From NCBI GenBank assembly GCA_045538875.1, contig JAZQEG010000003.1:19-64018 (forward strand): 64,000 nucleotides of DNA, read 5' to 3'. The DNA comes from Clostridia bacterium (GTDB lineage Bacteria > Bacillota > Clostridia > UMGS1810). The notes beneath the pieces were generated by a model, which ran no database searches, was not told the DNA's origin, and saw only the letters and a list, made by a program, of their open reading frames with translations. Position numbers and translations under genes: made by a program. How positions within the stretch are numbered: the first letter of the stretch is position 1; each line of letters begins with the position of its first letter. This document shows positions 50,604 through 62,048 of this stretch, piece after piece.

Positions 50604-50646
50604 TCTCAAAAAACTCACCTCACACAATATAATTGTATGAGGTGAG
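50604..50646 (-). terminator. Rho-independent terminator ending phage-like block B
   Basis: Minus strand: CTCACCTCA-loop-TGAGGTGAG followed by TTTTTTT. It lies 15 nt after the stop of the 309-aa gene. Confidence 0.75.
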
Positions 50647-50660
50647 ACACAAAATTATGA

Positions 50661-51590
50661 TTATATACCCAGCTTGTTCAAAAGCTCATCCAGGTCTATA
50701 TTGCCGTATGATTCTTTGTATATGGTTTCTGCAAGCTTTGCAAGAGCGTCGTACTTGTCGGCGTTTGCCTGATAATTCCATTTTGCATTGTTGGAGTTAA
50801 GCTTTGCAAAGTTGTACGAAAGATTGTTTTGGTCTTTTTGCTTTTTGTAATTTAATTCCTCCCGCCATCTGATGTCATCTTCTCTGTCACGCTCGGCCTC
50901 ATAATTTAACTTGGCAATTTCTGAAATTTTGTTTAAGGCAGTTGTAAGCTCGTTGCTGAATCTGTCGTACTCAAAGTCGCGCTCATCTTTGTACTGGTCA
51001 ACACTGTCAAGATATCTTGTATAATCATTTTTGTCTGCTTTTTCAAGCATATCGAGTATGTCATACTCTCTGTTTATGCCGTCAACATATCTTTTGTAGG
51101 CGGCATTATACAGCTCTGTTGCTTTGTCTGCAAGGGCAGAGTTGTAAAAATTTTGAGCCTGAGTGGCGCTTGCAGCAGCATTTGTATTTACAATTCCGCC
51201 TGTTTTTATAGAGCTTTGGGCTATGGCACGGTCATAAGCATCGTTGCCCATTTGTGTGTAAACCTTTTTGTAAAGCTGATACATCGGGTCGCTGTTGGGA
51301 TTGTAGCTAAAGTCTTTAATGTCAATAATCCTTTTTTGAGCATTTCTTATCATTTTGTCATATTGTGAGCTAAATTGAGGTTTTTGCAAAACGGGGTAGT
51401 AGCCGCTGCCGTCATTACCGCCGGTATATCCGCCGTATATGCGGCGTATGCTGTTTGCATAGGCATTTGCCTCAGCCATACCAGTCTCATCGCCGTTTGC
51501 CTGAGCTTTTGCATAGTTTTGTTTTGCACTTTTTATACCCTCTTTTGCAGCAGTTGTCAATTTTTCATCATATTGTGATAATTTGGTCAT
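50661..51590 (-). CDS. Hypothetical alpha-helical protein (possible phage virion or internal protein)
   Basis: 309 aa. The ATG immediately follows the upstream stop (TAAATG). The sequence is Y/N/D/K-rich and helical. No motif assigned. Confidence 0.6.
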   Translation of the reverse strand: MTKLSQYDEKLTTAAKEGIKSAKQNYAKAQANGDETGMAEANAYANSIRRIYGGYTGGNDGSGYYPVLQKPQFSSQYDKMIRNAQKRIIDIKDFSYNPNSDPMYQLYKKVYTQMGNDAYDRAIAQSSIKTGGIVNTNAAASATQAQNFYNSALADKATELYNAAYKRYVDGINREYDILDMLEKADKNDYTRYLDSVDQYKDERDFEYDRFSNELTTALNKISEIAKLNYEAERDREDDIRWREELNYKKQKDQNNLSYNFAKLNSNNAKWNYQANADKYDALAKLAETIYKESYGNIDLDELLNKLGI

Positions 51591-53342
51591 TTAGTTTCCT
51601 CCTTCTTTTAATAAAAAATATTCTCTTGTTAAATTTTTTAATGTAAAGTTGCCTTTGCCTTCAAATTTTACACAAATTTTTTTACACTTTATTCTTGGCA
51701 GCACAATAATGGTGTATCCGTTGTCGCTGTGCTCATAATCACCGTTTATATAAGCAAGCGGTATGTTGTTGTCGCAGGTTGTTTTAACGGTAAAATATCC
51801 GTTTTTGCCAAGCGTGTATTTTAAAAGCAGCCTTGTATAGCATTTGCTGTTAAAGGCACCCTCGTCAAACTCCATTTCAAAGCTCCACTCTGTATCATCT
51901 GCACTTTTTGAATTTAGCAGTGATATTTTGTTTTTGCCGCAGGCATACACTGATGCGCCGTTGTTTATAAGCAAAAATTCGTCGTCTGCAGCTATTTGGT
52001 GCCAAACCCTTTCGGCAACATAATATACAAGTATTATGCGTTTGCCCTTTTGCTCTGCAACAACATAATAGTTGCTGCCGTCTGTTGCGGCGGCAATAGC
52101 TGTTATGTCACCTTGCAGCTTTTGAGAAATGCACACAGGCACACCGCCGCTGTATGCATAAAAACCGTCAACGCCCTTGTAGTACAAAATTCCGTTAATG
52201 CACACAAGGGTTTTGTGAGCGTTTTTTTGTACACCGCTTAAGGATTGGGTGTAAAGAGTGTAATCCTCAGGCTGACTGCCGTAAATTTTGTGTACGCAGT
52301 TTTCTTTAAATGCAAAAATGTTTCCGTTGTACACGCATATTGCGGTAAACTCACCGCCTGTATCCACCTCCAGAGAGTAGCATGACGATGGCAGCGTTCC
52401 ATATGTATCTGACGAAAAGTCGTACCAAACGGACGCATCTCCAAGCAGTGAGCATCTTATGGAATTGCCCTCAACACCCCATACCCTGTTGCCGTGGGTA
52501 CACATATGCTTAAGGTCGGGTATTCTTTTTTCAATTGTAATACGTGTTGCATAAATTGTGTCATAGCCGTTTGTGTCAATTGCATTGTCATTAAACACAA
52601 GCATATAGTTAACCTCTTCGGAGCCGTAGAGGTTTTTGTTGGTAACAGTGCTTATTCTTGTTATTTCAAACGTAAAGCCCTCTTTCCATTTTTCCTTGTA
52701 CTTGTTATATTCGGTATAATCCGACACATCGTCAACATATATATCTGCACTTATGTGTACAAATTCCCCAACCTTTACATCCTTTGGGCGCATACACAGC
52801 CATGAAAACGCACTGTATGATATAGATGTTGATTGAACATTGTTTGAGCTTATTACGGCTACACCGTCGGGTATCGAATAAGCACCACCAATTTTTTCTT
52901 TTGCTTGCTTTATGGCAGAGCTTAAATTAAAATGCTGACTGACCGCTAAGTTTTTTGCTGTGTTTGTTGATGGTGTGTAAAGCACCTTGTCGGGCATAAT
53001 AAGTACCTGGTCCGACATACTTGCAAAATATCTTTCGCTTGTTGCGTCACTGTCAGATATCTGCGCCTTGTTGTCACCGTAATTAATTGTGCATTTGCTG
53101 GCACCAACAGGTGATGAAGTGTAAAACAGATTGTTGTAAAAAGATGCACCGTTTATGCATTGGTCTGTTGTTATTAAAGAGTTTGCACCCTTTGCACTTG
53201 ACAGGCAGGGGTAATCCTTTGCGCTCATATTAAATGATGACACAAGCTCGTTGTCCTGCTTTGACTTAGAATAATTAATTCCTGCAAAGCTTGTAATTTG
53301 GGTAGCCTTTTTTGTTATTTTTTCGGACATATATGGCAGCAT
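51591..53342 (-). CDS. Hypothetical 583-aa protein with beta-propeller-like repeats (possible phage tail or neck protein)
   Basis: RBS GGAGGTG-5nt-ATG. Recurrent blade-like segments (HGNRVWGVEGNSIRCS, YNGNIFAFKENCVHKIYG, INGILYYKGVDGFYAYSGG, DGSNYYVVAEQ, NNGASVYACGKN). Confidence 0.6.
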   Translation of the reverse strand: MLPYMSEKITKKATQITSFAGINYSKSKQDNELVSSFNMSAKDYPCLSSAKGANSLITTDQCINGASFYNNLFYTSSPVGASKCTINYGDNKAQISDSDATSERYFASMSDQVLIMPDKVLYTPSTNTAKNLAVSQHFNLSSAIKQAKEKIGGAYSIPDGVAVISSNNVQSTSISYSAFSWLCMRPKDVKVGEFVHISADIYVDDVSDYTEYNKYKEKWKEGFTFEITRISTVTNKNLYGSEEVNYMLVFNDNAIDTNGYDTIYATRITIEKRIPDLKHMCTHGNRVWGVEGNSIRCSLLGDASVWYDFSSDTYGTLPSSCYSLEVDTGGEFTAICVYNGNIFAFKENCVHKIYGSQPEDYTLYTQSLSGVQKNAHKTLVCINGILYYKGVDGFYAYSGGVPVCISQKLQGDITAIAAATDGSNYYVVAEQKGKRIILVYYVAERVWHQIAADDEFLLINNGASVYACGKNKISLLNSKSADDTEWSFEMEFDEGAFNSKCYTRLLLKYTLGKNGYFTVKTTCDNNIPLAYINGDYEHSDNGYTIIVLPRIKCKKICVKFEGKGNFTLKNLTREYFLLKEGGN

Positions 53343-53353
53343 AATTTCACCTC

Positions 53354-53716
53354 CTATTGCGTTATAACTGTGTTTTTTGGGGGTATGTTTTGCCTGCGGT
53401 ATTTTTTTTGCCAGTCTGTCATTAGCGAATTAAACATTGCGCTGTGATTGTTGTACATGGCAACATCCGAGTTTGCCATATCCATCATTGACAAAAGGTA
53501 ATACACATAGATATCGCTTCCCTCGCTCCCCAAAACAAGCTCGGCGTTTGTGTCATTTTCAAAGCTGTCATCGTAGTGCGTTTCGCCGTACATAGACATA
53601 AAATATCTTATTTTTGCCTCCAGTGTGTATACCCAATTTCGTTTTTGTGTCTGCAAAAATCCATTTGGCGAAATAGCATCTGCAGCTGTTACTGCATCAA
53701 GAAATGTAAATTTCAA
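53354..53716 (-). CDS. Hypothetical 120-aa protein (possible head-tail connector-type protein)
   Basis: The TTG start overlaps the upstream stop (TTGA). Size and position resemble phage head-completion proteins. The assignment is weak. Confidence 0.5.
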   Translation of the reverse strand: MKFTFLDAVTAADAISPNGFLQTQKRNWVYTLEAKIRYFMSMYGETHYDDSFENDTNAELVLGSEGSDIYVYYLLSMMDMANSDVAMYNNHSAMFNSLMTDWQKKYRRQNIPPKNTVITQ

Positions 53717-53877
53717 CTTTCGCTTCCTCCTTTCTGTAATTGTTTAATAATTTCAAGTTGTTTTTCAATGTGTTTGAGCCTTGCCTCTGTTTCATACCTT
53801 ATCTGTTCAACATACAAATACACCTTGTAGCTGTCCGACTCAGCAGATTTAAGGTCAGGTGCAAACTGGTTTTGCAT
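53713..53877 (-). CDS. Small 54-aa coiled-coil ORF (absent from the ORF track, below its size cutoff)
   Basis: ATG at 53877 preceded by AAAGGAGGGAGGAA. Translation is MQNQFAPDLKSAESDSYKVYLYVEQIRYETEARLKHIEKQLEIIKQLQKGGSES. Its stop overlaps the next start. Confidence 0.55.
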   Translation of the reverse strand: MQNQFAPDLKSAESDSYKVYLYVEQIRYETEARLKHIEKQLEIIKQLQKGGSES

Positions 53878-54031
53878 AATTCCTCCCTCCTTTGTGCCGA
53901 AGTGTAATTTTCGGCTGATATATCAAAGACACATTTTTATTATAAATGGTAATTAATTGACATTTCGCCTACTAACCTATTGATTTTTAAATAAAATTGA
54001 TGTAAAATTGTTTTGTAGGTGATATATGTTG

Positions 54032-57526: not shown

Positions 57527-57856
57527 TTATTGGTTTGCTTGTGCCTGCTCAAATATAGCCTCAAGCTTAAGCCTTGCCTCTTCCTTTTGTTGCTCCGAAG
57601 CGGTTTCGCTGTTAAATGTTTCAATCAATTTGTTAAGGTCGTTGCCTGTAACCTCCAAAACATCTGTTTCATTAACTTCGTCTTTATTGTCTTTGTCGTT
57701 TTGAGCATCGTTATCTTGCTGTTCTTGTTTTTTTTGTTGCTGTTGCTGCTCCTGCTGCTGTGTCTGCATATCGCCGGTGTCAGTATTGTCATTTTTGCCA
57801 CATCCTGCAACAAATATAAGCGATACAGCAAGTATAGCAATAAGTAATTTTTTCAT
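57527..57856 (-). CDS. Small lipoprotein with a Q/E/D-rich low-complexity region
   Basis: MKKLLIAILAVSLIFVAGC has a lipobox (VAGC). RBS GAGAGGTG. It lies 63 nt downstream of the terminase gene. Confidence 0.75.
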   Translation of the reverse strand: MKKLLIAILAVSLIFVAGCGKNDNTDTGDMQTQQQEQQQQQKKQEQQDNDAQNDKDNKDEVNETDVLEVTGNDLNKLIETFNSETASEQQKEEARLKLEAIFEQAQANQ

Positions 57857-57919
57857 CAAAATGCACCTCTCATTAGTAAAATACGTACTAATTATATAAT
57901 TATTAATCAATTTTGTCAA

Positions 57920-59377
57920 TCACATTGAATAAAAGTTATATCTAGGCAATTTTTGTGGTGCATCCGAAAGAGGGTTTTCGGCTATATCCTTTGCAAGAAC
58001 ATTTTTTCGCGGAGTAATGGGGTTTTCCATCAGTACATATCGCACACAGTCATAAATGTGATCTTCCGATTGTGTGTCAATATCCTCCACATTTGTACTG
58101 TCGTATACAAGGGCAGGGATGGTGCGTATAAAATGCTTGCAGGTGTTAAACACATACATCATTGGTATGCCTCTGCTATCAAAAGCAAAACGGTAGTGAT
58201 ACTGCATTTTGCCGGGCAGTCTTTCGTGGTCGCCCATATTAAAAAACACACCTTCCCTTGCCATCATATCTTCAATTGATTGTCCCGTTTCGGCTTTGGC
58301 AATTGCAGGGTCGGCAATTCCGTATATTTTTTTGCCTTTAAGGTTTGGATGCTCATTTTCCATTTGTTTTATTTTGCCTGCAATTTCCTGAGGGGTGTAA
58401 CGCACGCCCTCGTCTGCATTTTGTGTGCAGCCGTAAAGCTCTGCAATAACATAAACTCTGCCGTCGTGGTCTACGGCAATCCATTCTACTGCAAAGGGCT
58501 TTGAGTATCCAAAGTCAAAGCCGCGGTATATTTTCCATTCTTTTGGTATTGCAAAAGGCTCTATAACATGAGTAAACTGCCTGTCCATATAGTGATTAGG
58601 GTCGTTTTTCCATTCCGAAAACACCTGTCCGCAAAAGCTGTCCCAGTCGCCGTAAAGCAGAGCATTTCGCTCTTTTTCGGGCAGCATGGAGAGGTTTGCA
58701 AGGTAGTTTGGGTCGTTGCGAAGCAATTCCTTGTTGTCAAAAACGGTAGACGGAACAAAAATACGGTTTCGTGTGACAGAAAGCACATTGCCGTCGGGAC
58801 CTGCAATATTCATTTTGGTTGTGATGGGGGTAAGGGGCGGAGCGGCTGTTATAAACCGCTCCTTTACCCACGCATGGCCTATGCCGCCGGGGTTTGTTGT
58901 GGCACGGATATACACCCTTGTACCGCTGCCCGAGGGGCGATTACGCGAAAACATATACGAATACTCGTCCCAGGTAAAATGAGTAAGCTCGTCAAACGCA
59001 ATAAAATCGTATCGCTTTCCCTGATAGTTTATGCGGTCTTTTGTGTGCTGCATTGCACCAAAATATATTTTTGCTCCGCTTGGGAAAAGCCAAAAATGCT
59101 TGCTGTCGTTGTATTTTGCTTTTGGGTAAGCACGGGAATATAAATCACGGCTTCTGTCTATAAGCTCCGATAGCTGCGGATATGTTTTTCTAAGTATAAG
59201 GCCGCGGTAGTGGGGGATGTGCACCTGTCGGAGTGCCTCGGTGAGCAGTGCGTCTGACTTGCCGCCTCCTGCTGCTCCGCCGTATAGTGCCTCATATTCC
59301 CCCCGCGACTGAAATATTGCCTGCTTATGCTGAGGTGTCCATATCGTTTTCGTACCCGTCTTGTGTGTTGTCCTCAT
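57920..59377 (-). CDS. terL: Phage terminase large subunit
   Basis: Start at the ATG (MRTTHKTG) with GGAGGG 5 nt upstream. Walker A YGGAAGGGKSDAL, Walker B YDFIAFDELTHF, and nuclease-domain acidic motifs (GFDFGYSKPFAVEW, EDHIYDCVRYVL). Confidence 0.88.
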   Translation of the reverse strand: MRTTHKTGTKTIWTPQHKQAIFQSRGEYEALYGGAAGGGKSDALLTEALRQVHIPHYRGLILRKTYPQLSELIDRSRDLYSRAYPKAKYNDSKHFWLFPSGAKIYFGAMQHTKDRINYQGKRYDFIAFDELTHFTWDEYSYMFSRNRPSGSGTRVYIRATTNPGGIGHAWVKERFITAAPPLTPITTKMNIAGPDGNVLSVTRNRIFVPSTVFDNKELLRNDPNYLANLSMLPEKERNALLYGDWDSFCGQVFSEWKNDPNHYMDRQFTHVIEPFAIPKEWKIYRGFDFGYSKPFAVEWIAVDHDGRVYVIAELYGCTQNADEGVRYTPQEIAGKIKQMENEHPNLKGKKIYGIADPAIAKAETGQSIEDMMAREGVFFNMGDHERLPGKMQYHYRFAFDSRGIPMMYVFNTCKHFIRTIPALVYDSTNVEDIDTQSEDHIYDCVRYVLMENPITPRKNVLAKDIAENPLSDAPQKLPRYNFYSM

Positions 59378-59741
59378 TAGTGCCCTCCAATGTATCCTCA
59401 TCAATGTCACCTATAACAATAATGCCGCACTCGTCGTCATCATTTTCGGTGTCGCTGCCCGTAAAGCTCATATGTATGTCTTTAATGTCCTTAAGGGTGG
59501 ACACAAGCTGTTTGAGCCCCATTTTGTCAATCATACCGTCAATTATTTCGATGTTTTCTTTTTCTTCAATACATTCGCTGACGGGTTTTTTCAGATCAAA
59601 GTCGTATTCTACATTTTTGGTACGTTCTTTTGTTTTAATAACGCACCTGTCAATTTCTTCAATAGATTTTTCTATTTTTTCGAGTAACCTGTCGCTTATT
59701 TGTAAAATACGCTCCTCTCTGGATTCTGGTATGTTATTCAT
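59325..59741 (-). CDS. Acidic 138-aa protein immediately upstream of TerL (small terminase subunit by position only)
   Basis: The ATG at 59741 overlaps the upstream stop by 8 nt (ATGAATAA). The 3' end overlaps terL by 53 nt. The C-terminal third is D/E-rich. Confidence 0.5.
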   Translation of the reverse strand: MNNIPESREERILQISDRLLEKIEKSIEEIDRCVIKTKERTKNVEYDFDLKKPVSECIEEKENIEIIDGMIDKMGLKQLVSTLKDIKDIHMSFTGSDTENDDDECGIIVIGDIDEDTLEGTNEDNTQDGYENDMDTSA

Positions 59742-60015
59742 TAAGCTCCGCGGCACCCGATTTAGCAGACAATTCCATCTGATACTGAGCACTTTCGCCA
59801 TCCTGAATTTGTGAGTTGTCAAGTGCAATTGCATATTTGCGCGGTATTTTTACCTCTTTGCCTCGAGGTACAATCATCCCAACTCCGTTTACACCAACAA
59901 ACACATCATCTTTATACCTGTCGTTGTCTTTAAAAAGCTTTACTGTAACAAGCTCGTTGTAGTATGCGTTTTCCTGCGCAATAGTTTCAAATTTTTTTGT
60001 TTTAGCCTTAGCCAT
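59734..60015 (-). CDS. Hypothetical 93-aa phage-block protein
   Basis: RBS AGGAGGAA upstream. It follows the capsid gene. No motif assigned. Confidence 0.55.
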   Translation of the reverse strand: MAKAKTKKFETIAQENAYYNELVTVKLFKDNDRYKDDVFVGVNGVGMIVPRGKEVKIPRKYAIALDNSQIQDGESAQYQMELSAKSGAAELNE

Positions 60016-60044
60016 AATTTAATTCCTCCTGATAATAAATTTAA

Positions 60045-60995
60045 TTAAGCACCAAAAGTGGATGCACTTTCAATTCTGATCATATAGTTTTCAACAAGTC
60101 TCTCTGCGCATTTTACAGCTTTCCAGCCTGCAGTTGCTCTCTGGTTGAGCGGGTCTGCAGTTCCGCCTGAGCCAAGCTGCTTAACTATTGTTTTAAGTCC
60201 ACCGCCTGTAACCTCTGTTACACCATAGGCATTTGCACCAAGCACGAGTGTTGAATATACAGGTGTGTCGCCCTCAAATATTTTTGCTTCGGTAGTTTCT
60301 ACAAATCTCACGCCGCCGATTTTGCCGATTTCGCCTTCAAAAAGCTCGGTTGTTGCAGCGTATTTGTGAGCTTCAATCCACTCCTCGTCTCTCATAAGGT
60401 CATATGCAACATCGGGGTGGATAATTGCAACATATGAGCCGTCAATTTTTGGTGCATTTTGAGTTTTGAGGAACCTTGCAGCCTTGTAAATATCGTCAAC
60501 TGTAAGCTTGCAGTCTGCAGTAACAGAGCTTCTGGCACTTACACCGCCCGAGTACATTACATTTGTACCGCCGTTTAAAACTTCTCTTGTAATTGTGTCA
60601 AGAGTGCTGCCCGCCTGGTTACCCAAAAGCTTTGTAGTTTCTACAAGAGTATTGTCAACGCTTGTGAGCATAAGCAAGTCCGAAAGAGTTACATAGTAAC
60701 CATACTCGGCAACTGATGATGTAAGGCTTGTAACAGAGAGTGTGCCGCCGCTTGGTGTAACACCTTCGGTAAGAGCAGTTGTTGCTTTGTCAAATGGCAC
60801 AAATCTGCGGAAGTTAATTGTTTTGCCTCCGTTTTTTGGAATGTTGTGCTTCTGACCAAACTGGTCGTGCACAAGGTTCGGCTTTGCGTTGTCAATAAGG
60901 TAATCGCTGTAATAGGTTTTCATTTCTGCCGAAAGAGTTGTGGTTGTGTTTGGATTTGCATCAAACAATGTAAGGTTAAGTTCAAAATTTTTCAT
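60045..60995 (-). CDS. Major capsid protein, N4-gp56 family (HK97 fold)
   Basis: 316 aa. The segments VHDQFGQKHNIPKNGGKTINFRRF, LTEGVTPSG, GNQAGSTLDTITREVLNGGTNV and HPDVAYDL are, as I recall, characteristic of the N4-gp56 MCP family. Confidence 0.8.
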   Translation of the reverse strand: MKNFELNLTLFDANPNTTTTLSAEMKTYYSDYLIDNAKPNLVHDQFGQKHNIPKNGGKTINFRRFVPFDKATTALTEGVTPSGGTLSVTSLTSSVAEYGYYVTLSDLLMLTSVDNTLVETTKLLGNQAGSTLDTITREVLNGGTNVMYSGGVSARSSVTADCKLTVDDIYKAARFLKTQNAPKIDGSYVAIIHPDVAYDLMRDEEWIEAHKYAATTELFEGEIGKIGGVRFVETTEAKIFEGDTPVYSTLVLGANAYGVTEVTGGGLKTIVKQLGSGGTADPLNQRATAGWKAVKCAERLVENYMIRIESASTFGA

Positions 60996-61013
60996 ATAAT
61001 ATCTCCTTTTTAA

Positions 61014-61811
61014 TTAAAATGTAATTGTTTCGCCCATTGCTACGCGCTTTGCAATTTGTGCACGCTGCTCGGGAGTGAGCTTAGACACATCTGTTTTAAC
61101 AAGGGCAGAGCTTTGTGCCGAAAGGCCGTTTTCTACAGGGCGGTTTGCTACAGAGAGCATACGCTCGGCAGTTTGCTTTTCGGCATCCATAGCACTTTTA
61201 TTTTTTATTGCTTCAATAATGTCTGCATGGTGTACAACTTCATATGCGGTTTTCATATCAACACCATTTCGGAGCAGTTCAATAAATTTTGCATTTGCAA
61301 TTTCTGCACTGATGTCAAAATCGGGGTATTCTTTTGCTATTTGTTCCGATTCGGCATACCATTTTTTAACCTGCTGGTCAATTTTGTCATTTTGAGCTTT
61401 TTGCTGCTCAAGTGCTTTGTAATACTCATTTTCTTTTTCAAGGTTTTTAATGTATCTGTAATTGTGTACATCCATACCCTTTTCTTTGGCGTTGTCAATA
61501 ATAAGTGCATCATCATCGGCAACCTTTTTGGTAAGTGCTTCAAGGTCGTTTTTATCTACCTTGTATCTGTCAGCCAATACTTCAACAATTTGTTCAAGTT
61601 TAGCGAGCTTGCCTTTAAGCACTTCATTTCCCTTTAATCTTTTAGAAATAATTTCCTTAACTTTTGCTGTGTACAAGTCTTTATACTCGCCTTTGATAAG
61701 TGCATCAAACTCAGCTTTTTTGTCTGTCTTTTGTTTTTCGACAGTGTTGTTTTCGGGATTTGCGACTTTTTCTTTTTCGTCAAACAAATCGAGTTTAAAA
61801 TTGTTTTTCAT
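61014..61811 (-). CDS. Phage scaffolding-like protein
   Basis: Start at MKNNFKLDLFDEKEK after AAGGAG. 265 aa, K/E-rich coiled coil, directly upstream of the MCP gene. The ORF-track N-terminal extension runs into the GC-rich leader. Confidence 0.65.
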   Translation of the reverse strand: MKNNFKLDLFDEKEKVANPENNTVEKQKTDKKAEFDALIKGEYKDLYTAKVKEIISKRLKGNEVLKGKLAKLEQIVEVLADRYKVDKNDLEALTKKVADDDALIIDNAKEKGMDVHNYRYIKNLEKENEYYKALEQQKAQNDKIDQQVKKWYAESEQIAKEYPDFDISAEIANAKFIELLRNGVDMKTAYEVVHHADIIEAIKNKSAMDAEKQTAERMLSVANRPVENGLSAQSSALVKTDVSKLTPEQRAQIAKRVAMGETITF

Positions 61812-61852
61812 TTTTGTTTTTCTCCTTTTTTGATTTTCAAAAATTATTAAAT

Positions 61853-61930
61853 CGGGTGTGCATACGCACTCCCCTGCCGGCGTCAAGCGGTCTTTCCCGC
61901 GGGTCAGGTGCGATGAGCTCTTGTCGCGAC
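61853..61930 (-). other. GC-rich structured 5' leader upstream of the scaffold gene (candidate cis-regulatory RNA)
   Basis: About 78 nt of much higher GC than the AT-rich surroundings. On the minus strand it begins just after a TATAAT box. It contains the palindrome GTCGCGAC and the hairpin GGG.GTGC-GTAT-GCAC.CCC followed by a U-rich tract. Confidence 0.4.
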
Positions 61931-62048
61931 CTAATATCATTATAAATAATTGGTGGCACCTATTTCGCCAACTGAAATTGCAAAAAATGAAAATTTTTTA
62001 AAATTATTTAAAAATTGTTACCATTGTGTAAAAAAACTTCCATATTAA

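Follow-up and report, generated by a model that had tools for sequence, protein, structure and literature searches.

Gene transfer agents (GTAs) such as RcGTA and its alphaproteobacterial relatives are domesticated, vertically inherited and kept under purifying selection; they have a small terminase (TerS) without a DNA-binding domain and accessory loci under common regulation. Capsid-forming phage-inducible chromosomal islands (cf-PICIs) are small elements that carry an integrase, replication genes and a portal of their own, and that excise. A podovirus-type system, FpGTA, is found in Faecalibacterium prausnitzii, where particles of ~40 nm containing ~8.5 kb of random host DNA were demonstrated experimentally (PMC12946183, Nat Commun 2026). 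The 10.5-kb operon I of FpGTA encodes a TerS without DNA-binding domain (a loss reported for GTAs including FpGTA), the large terminase (TerL), a portal, a Prp-like protein, a scaffold, a capsid protein of the N4-gp56 family and short-tail proteins, and operon II, located 125 kb away, carries tail and lysis genes (PMC12946183). Packaging of host DNA in the manner of GTAs has recently been described as common among gut Clostridia, FpGTA being so far the only gene set tied to particles (PMC12946183; bioRxiv 10.64898/2026.07.08.737213). Here we describe phage-derived genes in a 64-kb stretch of contig JAZQEG010000003.1 from an uncultured member of the Clostridia; this whole stretch is referred to as the window, and all coordinates are positions within it. 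The window probably contains the head-and-packaging operon of a chromosomally fixed, dispersed, podovirus-derived GTA-like element of the FpGTA type.

The system resembles FpGTA in that a podovirus-type gene set without replication or integration genes resides in the chromosome of a gut member of the Clostridia and is split over more than one locus. By family names a TerS without helix-turn-helix (HTH), TerL and a major capsid protein (MCP) of the N4-gp56 family are also common to both. What differs is the number of loci (at least three are implied), the rearranged head operon and the host clade, which is a different and uncultured one. In FpGTA the portal and Prp-like genes are part of a contiguous operon I, whereas here the head locus has lost them and they are known only from other loci of relatives; TerS and TerL have moved behind the capsid genes, and the genes of the tail nozzle form a separate operon. 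FpGTA particles have been seen, whereas this system is known from genes alone. Domestication, vertical inheritance, purifying selection, a TerS without DNA-binding domain and the placing of further genes at separate, apparently co-regulated loci are shared with RcGTA, but the RcGTA-type elements are siphovirus-like, have their head genes including the portal gene in one ~15-kb cluster and are built from unrelated protein families. The cf-PICIs are alike in being small elements that encode their own capsid and terminase; their integrase, replication, portal and excision features do not apply here. The Bacillus phages Page and Pascal (Pagevirus-like), other Bacillota podophages with an N4-gp56 capsid and the gut virome sequences MT836150, MT836159 and MT836324 encode a homologous MCP (41–57% identity) and TerL (up to 65%), and they are also homologous in the scaffold, in the small protein encoded after the MCP gene (p93) and in the tail-region proteins designated C7, C6 and C10. 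Unlike the window, these are complete genomes or fragments with the portal gene between TerL and scaffold, in canonical order.

Gene order and inheritance of the head locus

A scan for the capsid protein with one genome per species gave 80 loci, and at ≥71% identity the block was also represented in over 120 protein clusters. A portal gene was lacking from the fetched span in 36 of the 80 loci, 16 of which had ~10 kb on both sides. The portal-less block is thus present in ~36 species-level metagenome-assembled genomes (MAGs) of Clostridia, from ruminant, Tibetan-livestock, Hadza and other human gut sources, and all its open reading frames (ORFs) are intact. The flanks of the portal-less loci are all housekeeping or ordinary host genes, which answers a check on synteny that had been proposed in an earlier reading of the window made without database searches (the sequence-only reading): the same block recurs between host genes in one species after another. 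In the MCP tree the 36 portal-less loci group with the window in a single clade; in the TerL tree, which has the same main groupings, the TerLs of these loci likewise cluster in a single tight clade.

The order TerS-TerL-portal-Prp-scaffold-MCP-p93-C7-C6-(x)-C10 is canonical in the phage and virome records and is also found on many chromosomal contigs of Oscillospiraceae and Acutalibacteraceae. The atypical order pointed out by the sequence-only reading is real; it is derived from the ancestral TerS-TerL-portal-Prp-scaffold-MCP-p93-C7-C6-C10 by a rearrangement that has been conserved. In the arrangement of the window, scaffold-MCP-p93-TerS-TerL, the block usually lies beside the same divergent surface-protein gene, a neighbour that is retained even where its product is only 42–48% identical to that of the window. 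A second arrangement, TerS-TerL-lipoprotein-scaffold-MCP-p93, occurs in loci L012 and L014. In the third (class C) scaffold-MCP-p93 stands alone next to clpC-mcsB-ctsR, and hisS-aspS lies upstream of it in several genomes. These three genes are the core that is kept most widely. The comparison of gene orders, trees and substitution rates shows that a phage-type cluster was broken up in an ancestor of an uncultured gut Clostridia clade and that its pieces are maintained under purifying selection at host loci.

One relative, L015 (JAZRUG010000036.1), is a phage-like contig of 42 kb on which a portal gene and a gene for a 2748-aa protein are found. Identity to the window is 78% for its MCP, 62% for its TerL and only 31% for its scaffold; in the trees the MCP groups within the chromosomal clade, whereas the TerL branches outside it.

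Selection was estimated as dN/dS by the Nei-Gojobori method between the window and its close relative L005 (JAZQZC01; 97% MCP identity). Values for the head genes were 0.03–0.11 and those for the tail genes described below reached 0.23 (Table 1), compared to 0.07–0.17 for adjacent host genes; the lipoprotein gene next to TerL (0.48) is the sole gene that looks relaxed. The dS of the phage-derived genes (0.42–0.68; head genes 0.42–0.62) was indistinguishable from that of host genes (0.62–0.67). Eight other pairs of genomes in the clade gave dN/dS values of 0.01–0.27, alongside 0.04 for clpC, 0.03 for hisS and 0.07 for a sugar kinase. Across ten genomes of one sub-clade TerL is 81–90% identical and the flanking kinase 80–92%; the degree of conservation of TerL equals that of the most conserved enzymes encoded in the flanks, and module and flanks agree on which genomes pair most closely. 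The TerL of the window retains intact Walker A, Walker B and C-motif sequences as well as three intact nuclease motifs, and the core residues of the motifs are invariant in 18 TerLs from portal-less loci. Because dN/dS is low, dS is like that of the host flanks, TerL tracks the host enzymes and the motif residues are invariant, simple decay is excluded, and the terminase and capsid are seen to have been inherited vertically, in working order, over a long time.

Tail and portal genes at separate loci

The sequence-only reading had found no tail gene in the 64 kb. This was wrong, as clustering of all ORFs of 84 related loci, followed by searches with hidden Markov models (HMMs) made from the clusters, revealed a second phage-derived block, p54-C7-C6-C10, on the minus strand at 50661–53877, 4 kb from the head block. 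C6 is, according to its predicted structure, a tail nozzle protein. The AlphaFold2 model, made with 47 homologs, has a mean predicted local distance difference test (pLDDT) of 90.2 and a predicted template modelling score of 0.85. A Foldseek search of the PDB with this model placed nozzle or tail-hub chains of podoviruses in each of the first 29 ranks (Pa223, PhiM1, T7 gp12, P22 gp10; E 4.5e-16 to 1e-8). A profile of C6 against PDB sequences gave no meaningful match, so the fold search alone succeeded. The possibility that C6 is a hidden portal was ruled out, as related phages carry C6 in addition to a portal and the fold is that of a nozzle. From its position beside the nozzle gene C7 would be adaptor-like, in line with the order MCP-p93-C7-C6 in related phages, and C10, whose gene is downstream of that for C6 both in phages and in every chromosomal tail block, would by position be like an internal or ejection protein. 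No family match was obtained for p54; an ORF of 54–62 aa likewise precedes C7 in L165, L168 and L170–L178.

The tail operon, like the head block, is bounded by host genes, and host genes separate the two. It lies directly upstream of spoIVFA/spoIVFB-like genes, a position kept in L005 and L170. The M23 and M50 peptidase genes that follow C10 were considered as phage lysis genes and rejected; they are this host spoIVFA/spoIVFB-like pair, which is kept together with radical-SAM, DUF2344 and ligA genes in L170 too.

No portal, Prp, fibre or lysis gene was found in the 64 kb. HMMs built from 31 related portals and from their Prp-like neighbour had no match anywhere in the window, which bears out the absence of a portal gene noted by the sequence-only reading. 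Portal genes were traced through nozzle homologs in other assemblies, followed by searches with the portal found there. In several genomes a block p55-C7-C6-C10 stands alone among host genes, and in L170 it has exactly the position of the window block upstream of spoIVFA/B, though its C6 is only 44% identical. In L171, L173 and L174 the block is portal-Prp-holin-like-amidase-p62-C7-C6-C10, and a 12-gene block portal-Prp-tail fibre-x-x-holin-like-x-Amidase_2-p58-C7-C6-C10 is found in differing host contexts (L172, L175–L178). L172 and the head locus L017 are on one contig of 44,320 bp (JAZQDA010000102.1), with portal-to-C10 at ~19.7–29.1 kb and scaffold-MCP-p93 at ~41.8–43.5 kb, ~13 kb apart. 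In L179 (JAZQBI010000164.1) a lone portal gene, followed by genes for small membrane proteins and a CHAP lysin, is located directly after infC-rpmI-rplT; this contig belongs to the same MAG as L059 (JAZQBI010000004.1), a locus of the window type with the surface-protein neighbour, and the GC contents are 0.41 and 0.42. Genomes with a portal-less head locus therefore encode a portal at another locus, and the missing portal of the window is best explained by gene dispersal rather than by a mechanism without portal.

The head and tail operons of the window are preceded by a common promoter-like motif (P1 and P2, Table 1) with an identical spacing of 18 nt. The pattern GGCGAAW-N15-22-TAWAAT occurs exactly twice in 64 kb, at 61939–61969 and at 53939–53969, compared to 0.17 expected, and none of 100 shuffles reached two occurrences. 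In relatives the motif, with the consensus GTAGGCGAAA-N18-TATAAT, precedes the scaffold gene in L005, L007, L016 and L054–L070 and the p55-C7-C6-C10 tail blocks of L005, L168 and L170, and it is also found before the lone portal gene of L179. Judged from this distribution the motif looks like the signature of one regulon that would cover head, tail and portal loci. Its -35-like element is not the sigma-70 consensus, and a dedicated sigma factor or activator may bind here.

From homology to characterised systems it can be envisaged how such a particle would be made. A portal gene at a third locus outside the window would be accompanied by lysis and probably fibre genes, as in relatives, and procapsids would assemble on this portal. 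TerS and TerL would then fill the procapsids with host DNA by headful packaging without sequence specificity, the adaptor and nozzle would close the particle, and lysis would release it for transfer.

A probable dispersed particle system and its alternatives

Several observations fit a dispersed GTA-like element. The families detected are structural and packaging families only, without genes for replication, integration or control of lysogeny. Inheritance is vertical and under purifying selection, as seen from synteny, tree groupings and dN/dS values of 0.03–0.27. Relatives possess, at other loci, the portal, Prp, fibre and lysis genes that a full particle would need in addition to those of the window, in one case on the contig that bears the capsid block and in another within the MAG of a window-type block. 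Loss of the HTH from the TerS parallels the small terminases of GTAs and may be taken as a hint, the only one and an indirect one, of random packaging and delivery of host DNA. Other observations count against it. The portal genes located are those of relatives and not of the source organism itself; the link between L179 and L059 depends on MAG binning, and that between L172 and L017, although on a single contig, comes from a lineage without TerL beside the capsid genes. The clade is known here from genes alone, and its likeness to FpGTA consists in shared NCBI and Pfam family names rather than in sequence alignment. Most members of the clade keep the HTH of TerS, so packaging may be sequence-directed there. 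The nesting of the L015 MCP in the clade suggests that capsid genes have been exchanged between phages and the domesticated module. Lastly, tyrosine recombinase genes are found beside the blocks in L171 (13069–13908) and L177 (7284–9539, together with Bro-N), and an IS110 transposase gene beside the block in L165 (12973–14031); such neighbours may hint at occasional mobility, and they may also relate to how the blocks were relocated.

It is conceivable that the same dispersed particle has another function for the host, as a PBSX-like killer, in altruistic lysis or by diverting the assembly parts of infecting podoviruses as an anti-phage device. PBSX, a defective-phage particle that packages host DNA, provides a precedent, the sequence evidence points to selection for a working particle and not for DNA delivery as such, and the lysis cassette adjoins the portal gene in relatives. 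We consider this unlikely, as FpGTA, the closest characterised relative by gene families, packages random host DNA in ~8.5-kb pieces, and TerS and TerL are kept with conserved catalytic motifs, from which it appears that filled heads matter. It is very unlikely that the portal is truly absent from the lineage of the window, where the tail block has already been reduced to p54-C7-C6-C10, and that the set works only with the portal of an infecting podophage, either as a helper-dependent transfer device or as a defence that hijacks phage assembly. A related proposal, also made in the sequence-only reading, is that of a phage satellite with its own capsid and terminase that takes portal and tail from an infecting phage. 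The lack of a portal gene in the window, the presence in the same habitats of true phages with a compatible portal and the 78% identical MCP of the phage-like contig L015 agree with such an element. On the other hand, no integrase, replication module, excision or attachment-site features of a PICI or cf-PICI were found, and the window has no homolog of the recombinases near the relatives' blocks, as the sequence-only reading had already noted for integrases. The locus is fixed among conserved host genes across species and co-diverges with the host, it is accompanied by adaptor-like and nozzle genes in a tail operon of its own, and relatives encode portal, fibre and lysis loci in their own chromosomes, which together make the satellite highly improbable.

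A recently decayed prophage had likewise been suggested. The absence of portal, Prp, fibre and lysis genes from the window, the N-terminal truncation of TerS and the separation of the two blocks by host genes are what would be left by deletions in a prophage heading for loss. However, the dN/dS values of the phage-derived genes (0.03–0.23), their dS equal to that of the host flanks, the intact ORFs in ~36 species, the conservation of arrangement and neighbours down to 42–48% surface-protein identity and the promoter motif common to both operons all argue against decay. Relaxed dN/dS, named in the sequence-only reading as a sign of decay, was looked for in the comparison with L005 and in the eight other pairs, and all values are far below 1. 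A plain remnant is largely refuted and is given hardly any weight. The least credible explanation is a portal-less shell of scaffold and capsid protein, i.e., an encapsulin-like nanocompartment. It would account for scaffold-MCP-p93 being the most widely kept genes and the only three present locally in class C loci, but no cargo gene was recognised beside this core in the mapped loci, the adjacent TerS and TerL genes are strongly constrained and in class C genomes a block of portal, tail and lysis genes lies in the vicinity. The idea of a domesticated capsid and packaging system, also raised in the sequence-only reading, holds as far as domestication is concerned; rather than being a portal-less oddity, the block would be one locus of a multi-locus particle system.

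Genes and signals of the two operons and their significance

The features of the window are collected in Table 1. An ORF scan and family matches agree with the sequence-only reading on five co-oriented minus-strand ORFs, on the identity of the capsid protein and of TerL with its motifs, and on the lipoprotein gene and hairpins downstream.

Table 1. Features of the head and tail loci in the window; dN/dS is for the comparison with L005
Feature	Position	Strand	dN/dS	Description
Intrinsic-terminator-like hairpin	50614..50646	-		15-bp stem and T run; ends tail operon before spoIVFA
C10, coiled-coil virion protein	50661..51590	-	0.23	309 aa; cluster HMM E 2.4e-77
C6, podovirus tail nozzle	51591..53342	-	0.21	583 aa; phrog_511; AlphaFold2 and Foldseek
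C7, head-to-tail adaptor-like	53354..53716	-	0.09	120 aa; phrog_12105 E 2.5e-19
p54, first ORF of tail operon	53713..53877	-		54 aa; found by translation
Promoter-like motif P2	53939..53972	-		GTAGGCGAAA, 18 nt, TATAAT; upstream of p54/tail operon
Lipoprotein, neighbour gene	57527..57856	-	0.48	109 aa; own promoter 57891-57919
Large terminase (ATPase and nuclease)	57920..59377	-	0.075	485 aa (ORF 485/496); Terminase_6N, phrog_979
Small-terminase-like protein without N-terminal HTH	59325..59741	-	0.11	138 aa, acidic; TerS-cluster HMM E 7.9e-54
p93, small head-associated protein	59734..60015	-	0.03	93 aa; phrog_15239 E 4e-22
MCP, N4-gp56 family	60045..60995	-	0.05	316 aa; PF25209 and PF13252; phrog_1357 E 1.7e-92
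Scaffolding-like protein	61014..61811	-	0.10	265 aa; phrog_13908 E 7.6e-66
5' leader of head operon	61812..61935	-		Hairpin TGACCC-GCGG-GAAAGA-CCGC, core 61888-61898 (hairpin ~61881-61902)
Promoter-like motif P1	61939..61972	-		GTTGGCGAAA, 18 nt, TATAAT; upstream of scaffold gene

The first gene of the head operon is assigned as scaffold-like because of its constant position directly before the capsid gene in all relatives and phages. Its reading frame is open up to 61940 (308 aa as the long ORF), and the long ATG start reads through the leader; based on the L005 ortholog and the ribosome-binding site (RBS) the start is most likely the ATG at 61811. Of the ORF extents given by the sequence-only reading the block as such stands and the scaffold start at 61940 most likely does not; the lipoprotein gene starts at 57856. 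The MCP is an HK97-type capsid protein (Pfam Phage_capsid_4 and _3), its N4-gp56 label coming from the NCBI protein name. In one sub-clade (L043, L052, L054–L070) the MCPs have a hypervariable insertion of ~100 aa after TEAKIF (residue ~243 of the window MCP). Outside this insertion the protein is highly conserved; between L058 and L061 the MCP is 83% and TerL 98% identical. The gene for p93 always follows the MCP gene, both in phages and in chromosomal loci, and a single-sequence AlphaFold2 model of p93 was unusable (pLDDT 54). The TerS-like protein aligns only to positions 56–170 of the 172-position TerS-cluster HMM, and the alignment places loss of the HTH in the window and L005, in L012 and L014, and in L070. 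A phmmer search with TerL against PDB sequences gave no match. The coordinates bear out an overlap of 8 nt between the p93 stop (59734) and the TerS-like start (59741) and one of 53 nt between the TerS-like end (59325) and the TerL start (59377).

The lipoprotein is probably not a component of the particle. Its gene has a perfect sigma-70 consensus promoter (TTGACA-17-TATAAT) directly behind the TerL stop, and hairpins also lie behind the TerL/lipoprotein end of the head block. A lipoprotein gene is found after TerL or before the scaffold gene in L005–L007, L012, L014, L052 and L085; that of the window is a doubtful member of the module given its own promoter and fast evolution. In L012 and L014 a lipoprotein gene is located between TerL and scaffold, exactly at the place of the portal gene in phages, and the gene order of these loci is a cyclic permutation of that of the window. 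Plus-strand host genes flank the head block, one for a short-chain dehydrogenase and, on the other side, one for a NAGPA/Big_2 surface protein; the latter gene runs beyond the window edge. The window is core chromosome, and ORFs of 1281 and 1245 aa at 28–36 kb fit rpoB and rpoC by size alone.

The leader hairpin of the head operon has counterparts in ~30 loci of the clade (e.g., L056–L070 and L009–L022), which contain TGACAC-[4-bp stem]-GAAAGA-[stem'] once or twice, usually twice. Covariation is seen in the stems: pairing is kept in 100% of cells, both sides have changed at three of the four pairs, and none of 500 shuffles matched this. The proximal copy abuts the scaffold RBS. A search of Rfam with the whole window, and a permissive one with the scaffold leader, returned two tRNAs and one chance match and no family for the hairpin, and the minimum free energy z-score of the leader is only -1.9. 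The hairpin may be a regulatory handle.

Two further groups of operons in human gut metagenomes are candidates for FpGTA-like elements. In L096–L106 and L128–L140 (contigs up to 423 kb) a compact TerS-TerL-portal-Prp-scaffold-MCP-p93-C7-C6-C10 is near-identical across many samples and lies on large chromosomal contigs, with Acutalibacteraceae suggested by the cluster names. In a second group the order is rearranged to TerL-C6-...-portal. The names of cluster members of the metagenome loci included Acutalibacteraceae and Caudoviricetes and no Faecalibacterium accession.

The particle genes of the clade are scattered in pieces of 3–10 kb among housekeeping genes, each of which resembles an incomplete scrap of a prophage and could be discarded by prophage finders. 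In a later preprint Coprocola and QXXE01 were reported to have candidate GTA clusters, and prophage-finder criteria gave none in the suspected GTA producer Pelethomonas (bioRxiv 10.64898/2026.07.08.737213); scattered loci of this size might be missed by such criteria. The shared promoter motif could be used to find the whole regulon. The clade also offers a natural series in the break-up of a phage-type cluster, from contiguous to two loci and to three or more. If particles are confirmed, podovirus-type GTAs would be extended to a broad uncultured group of bacteria in ruminant and human guts.

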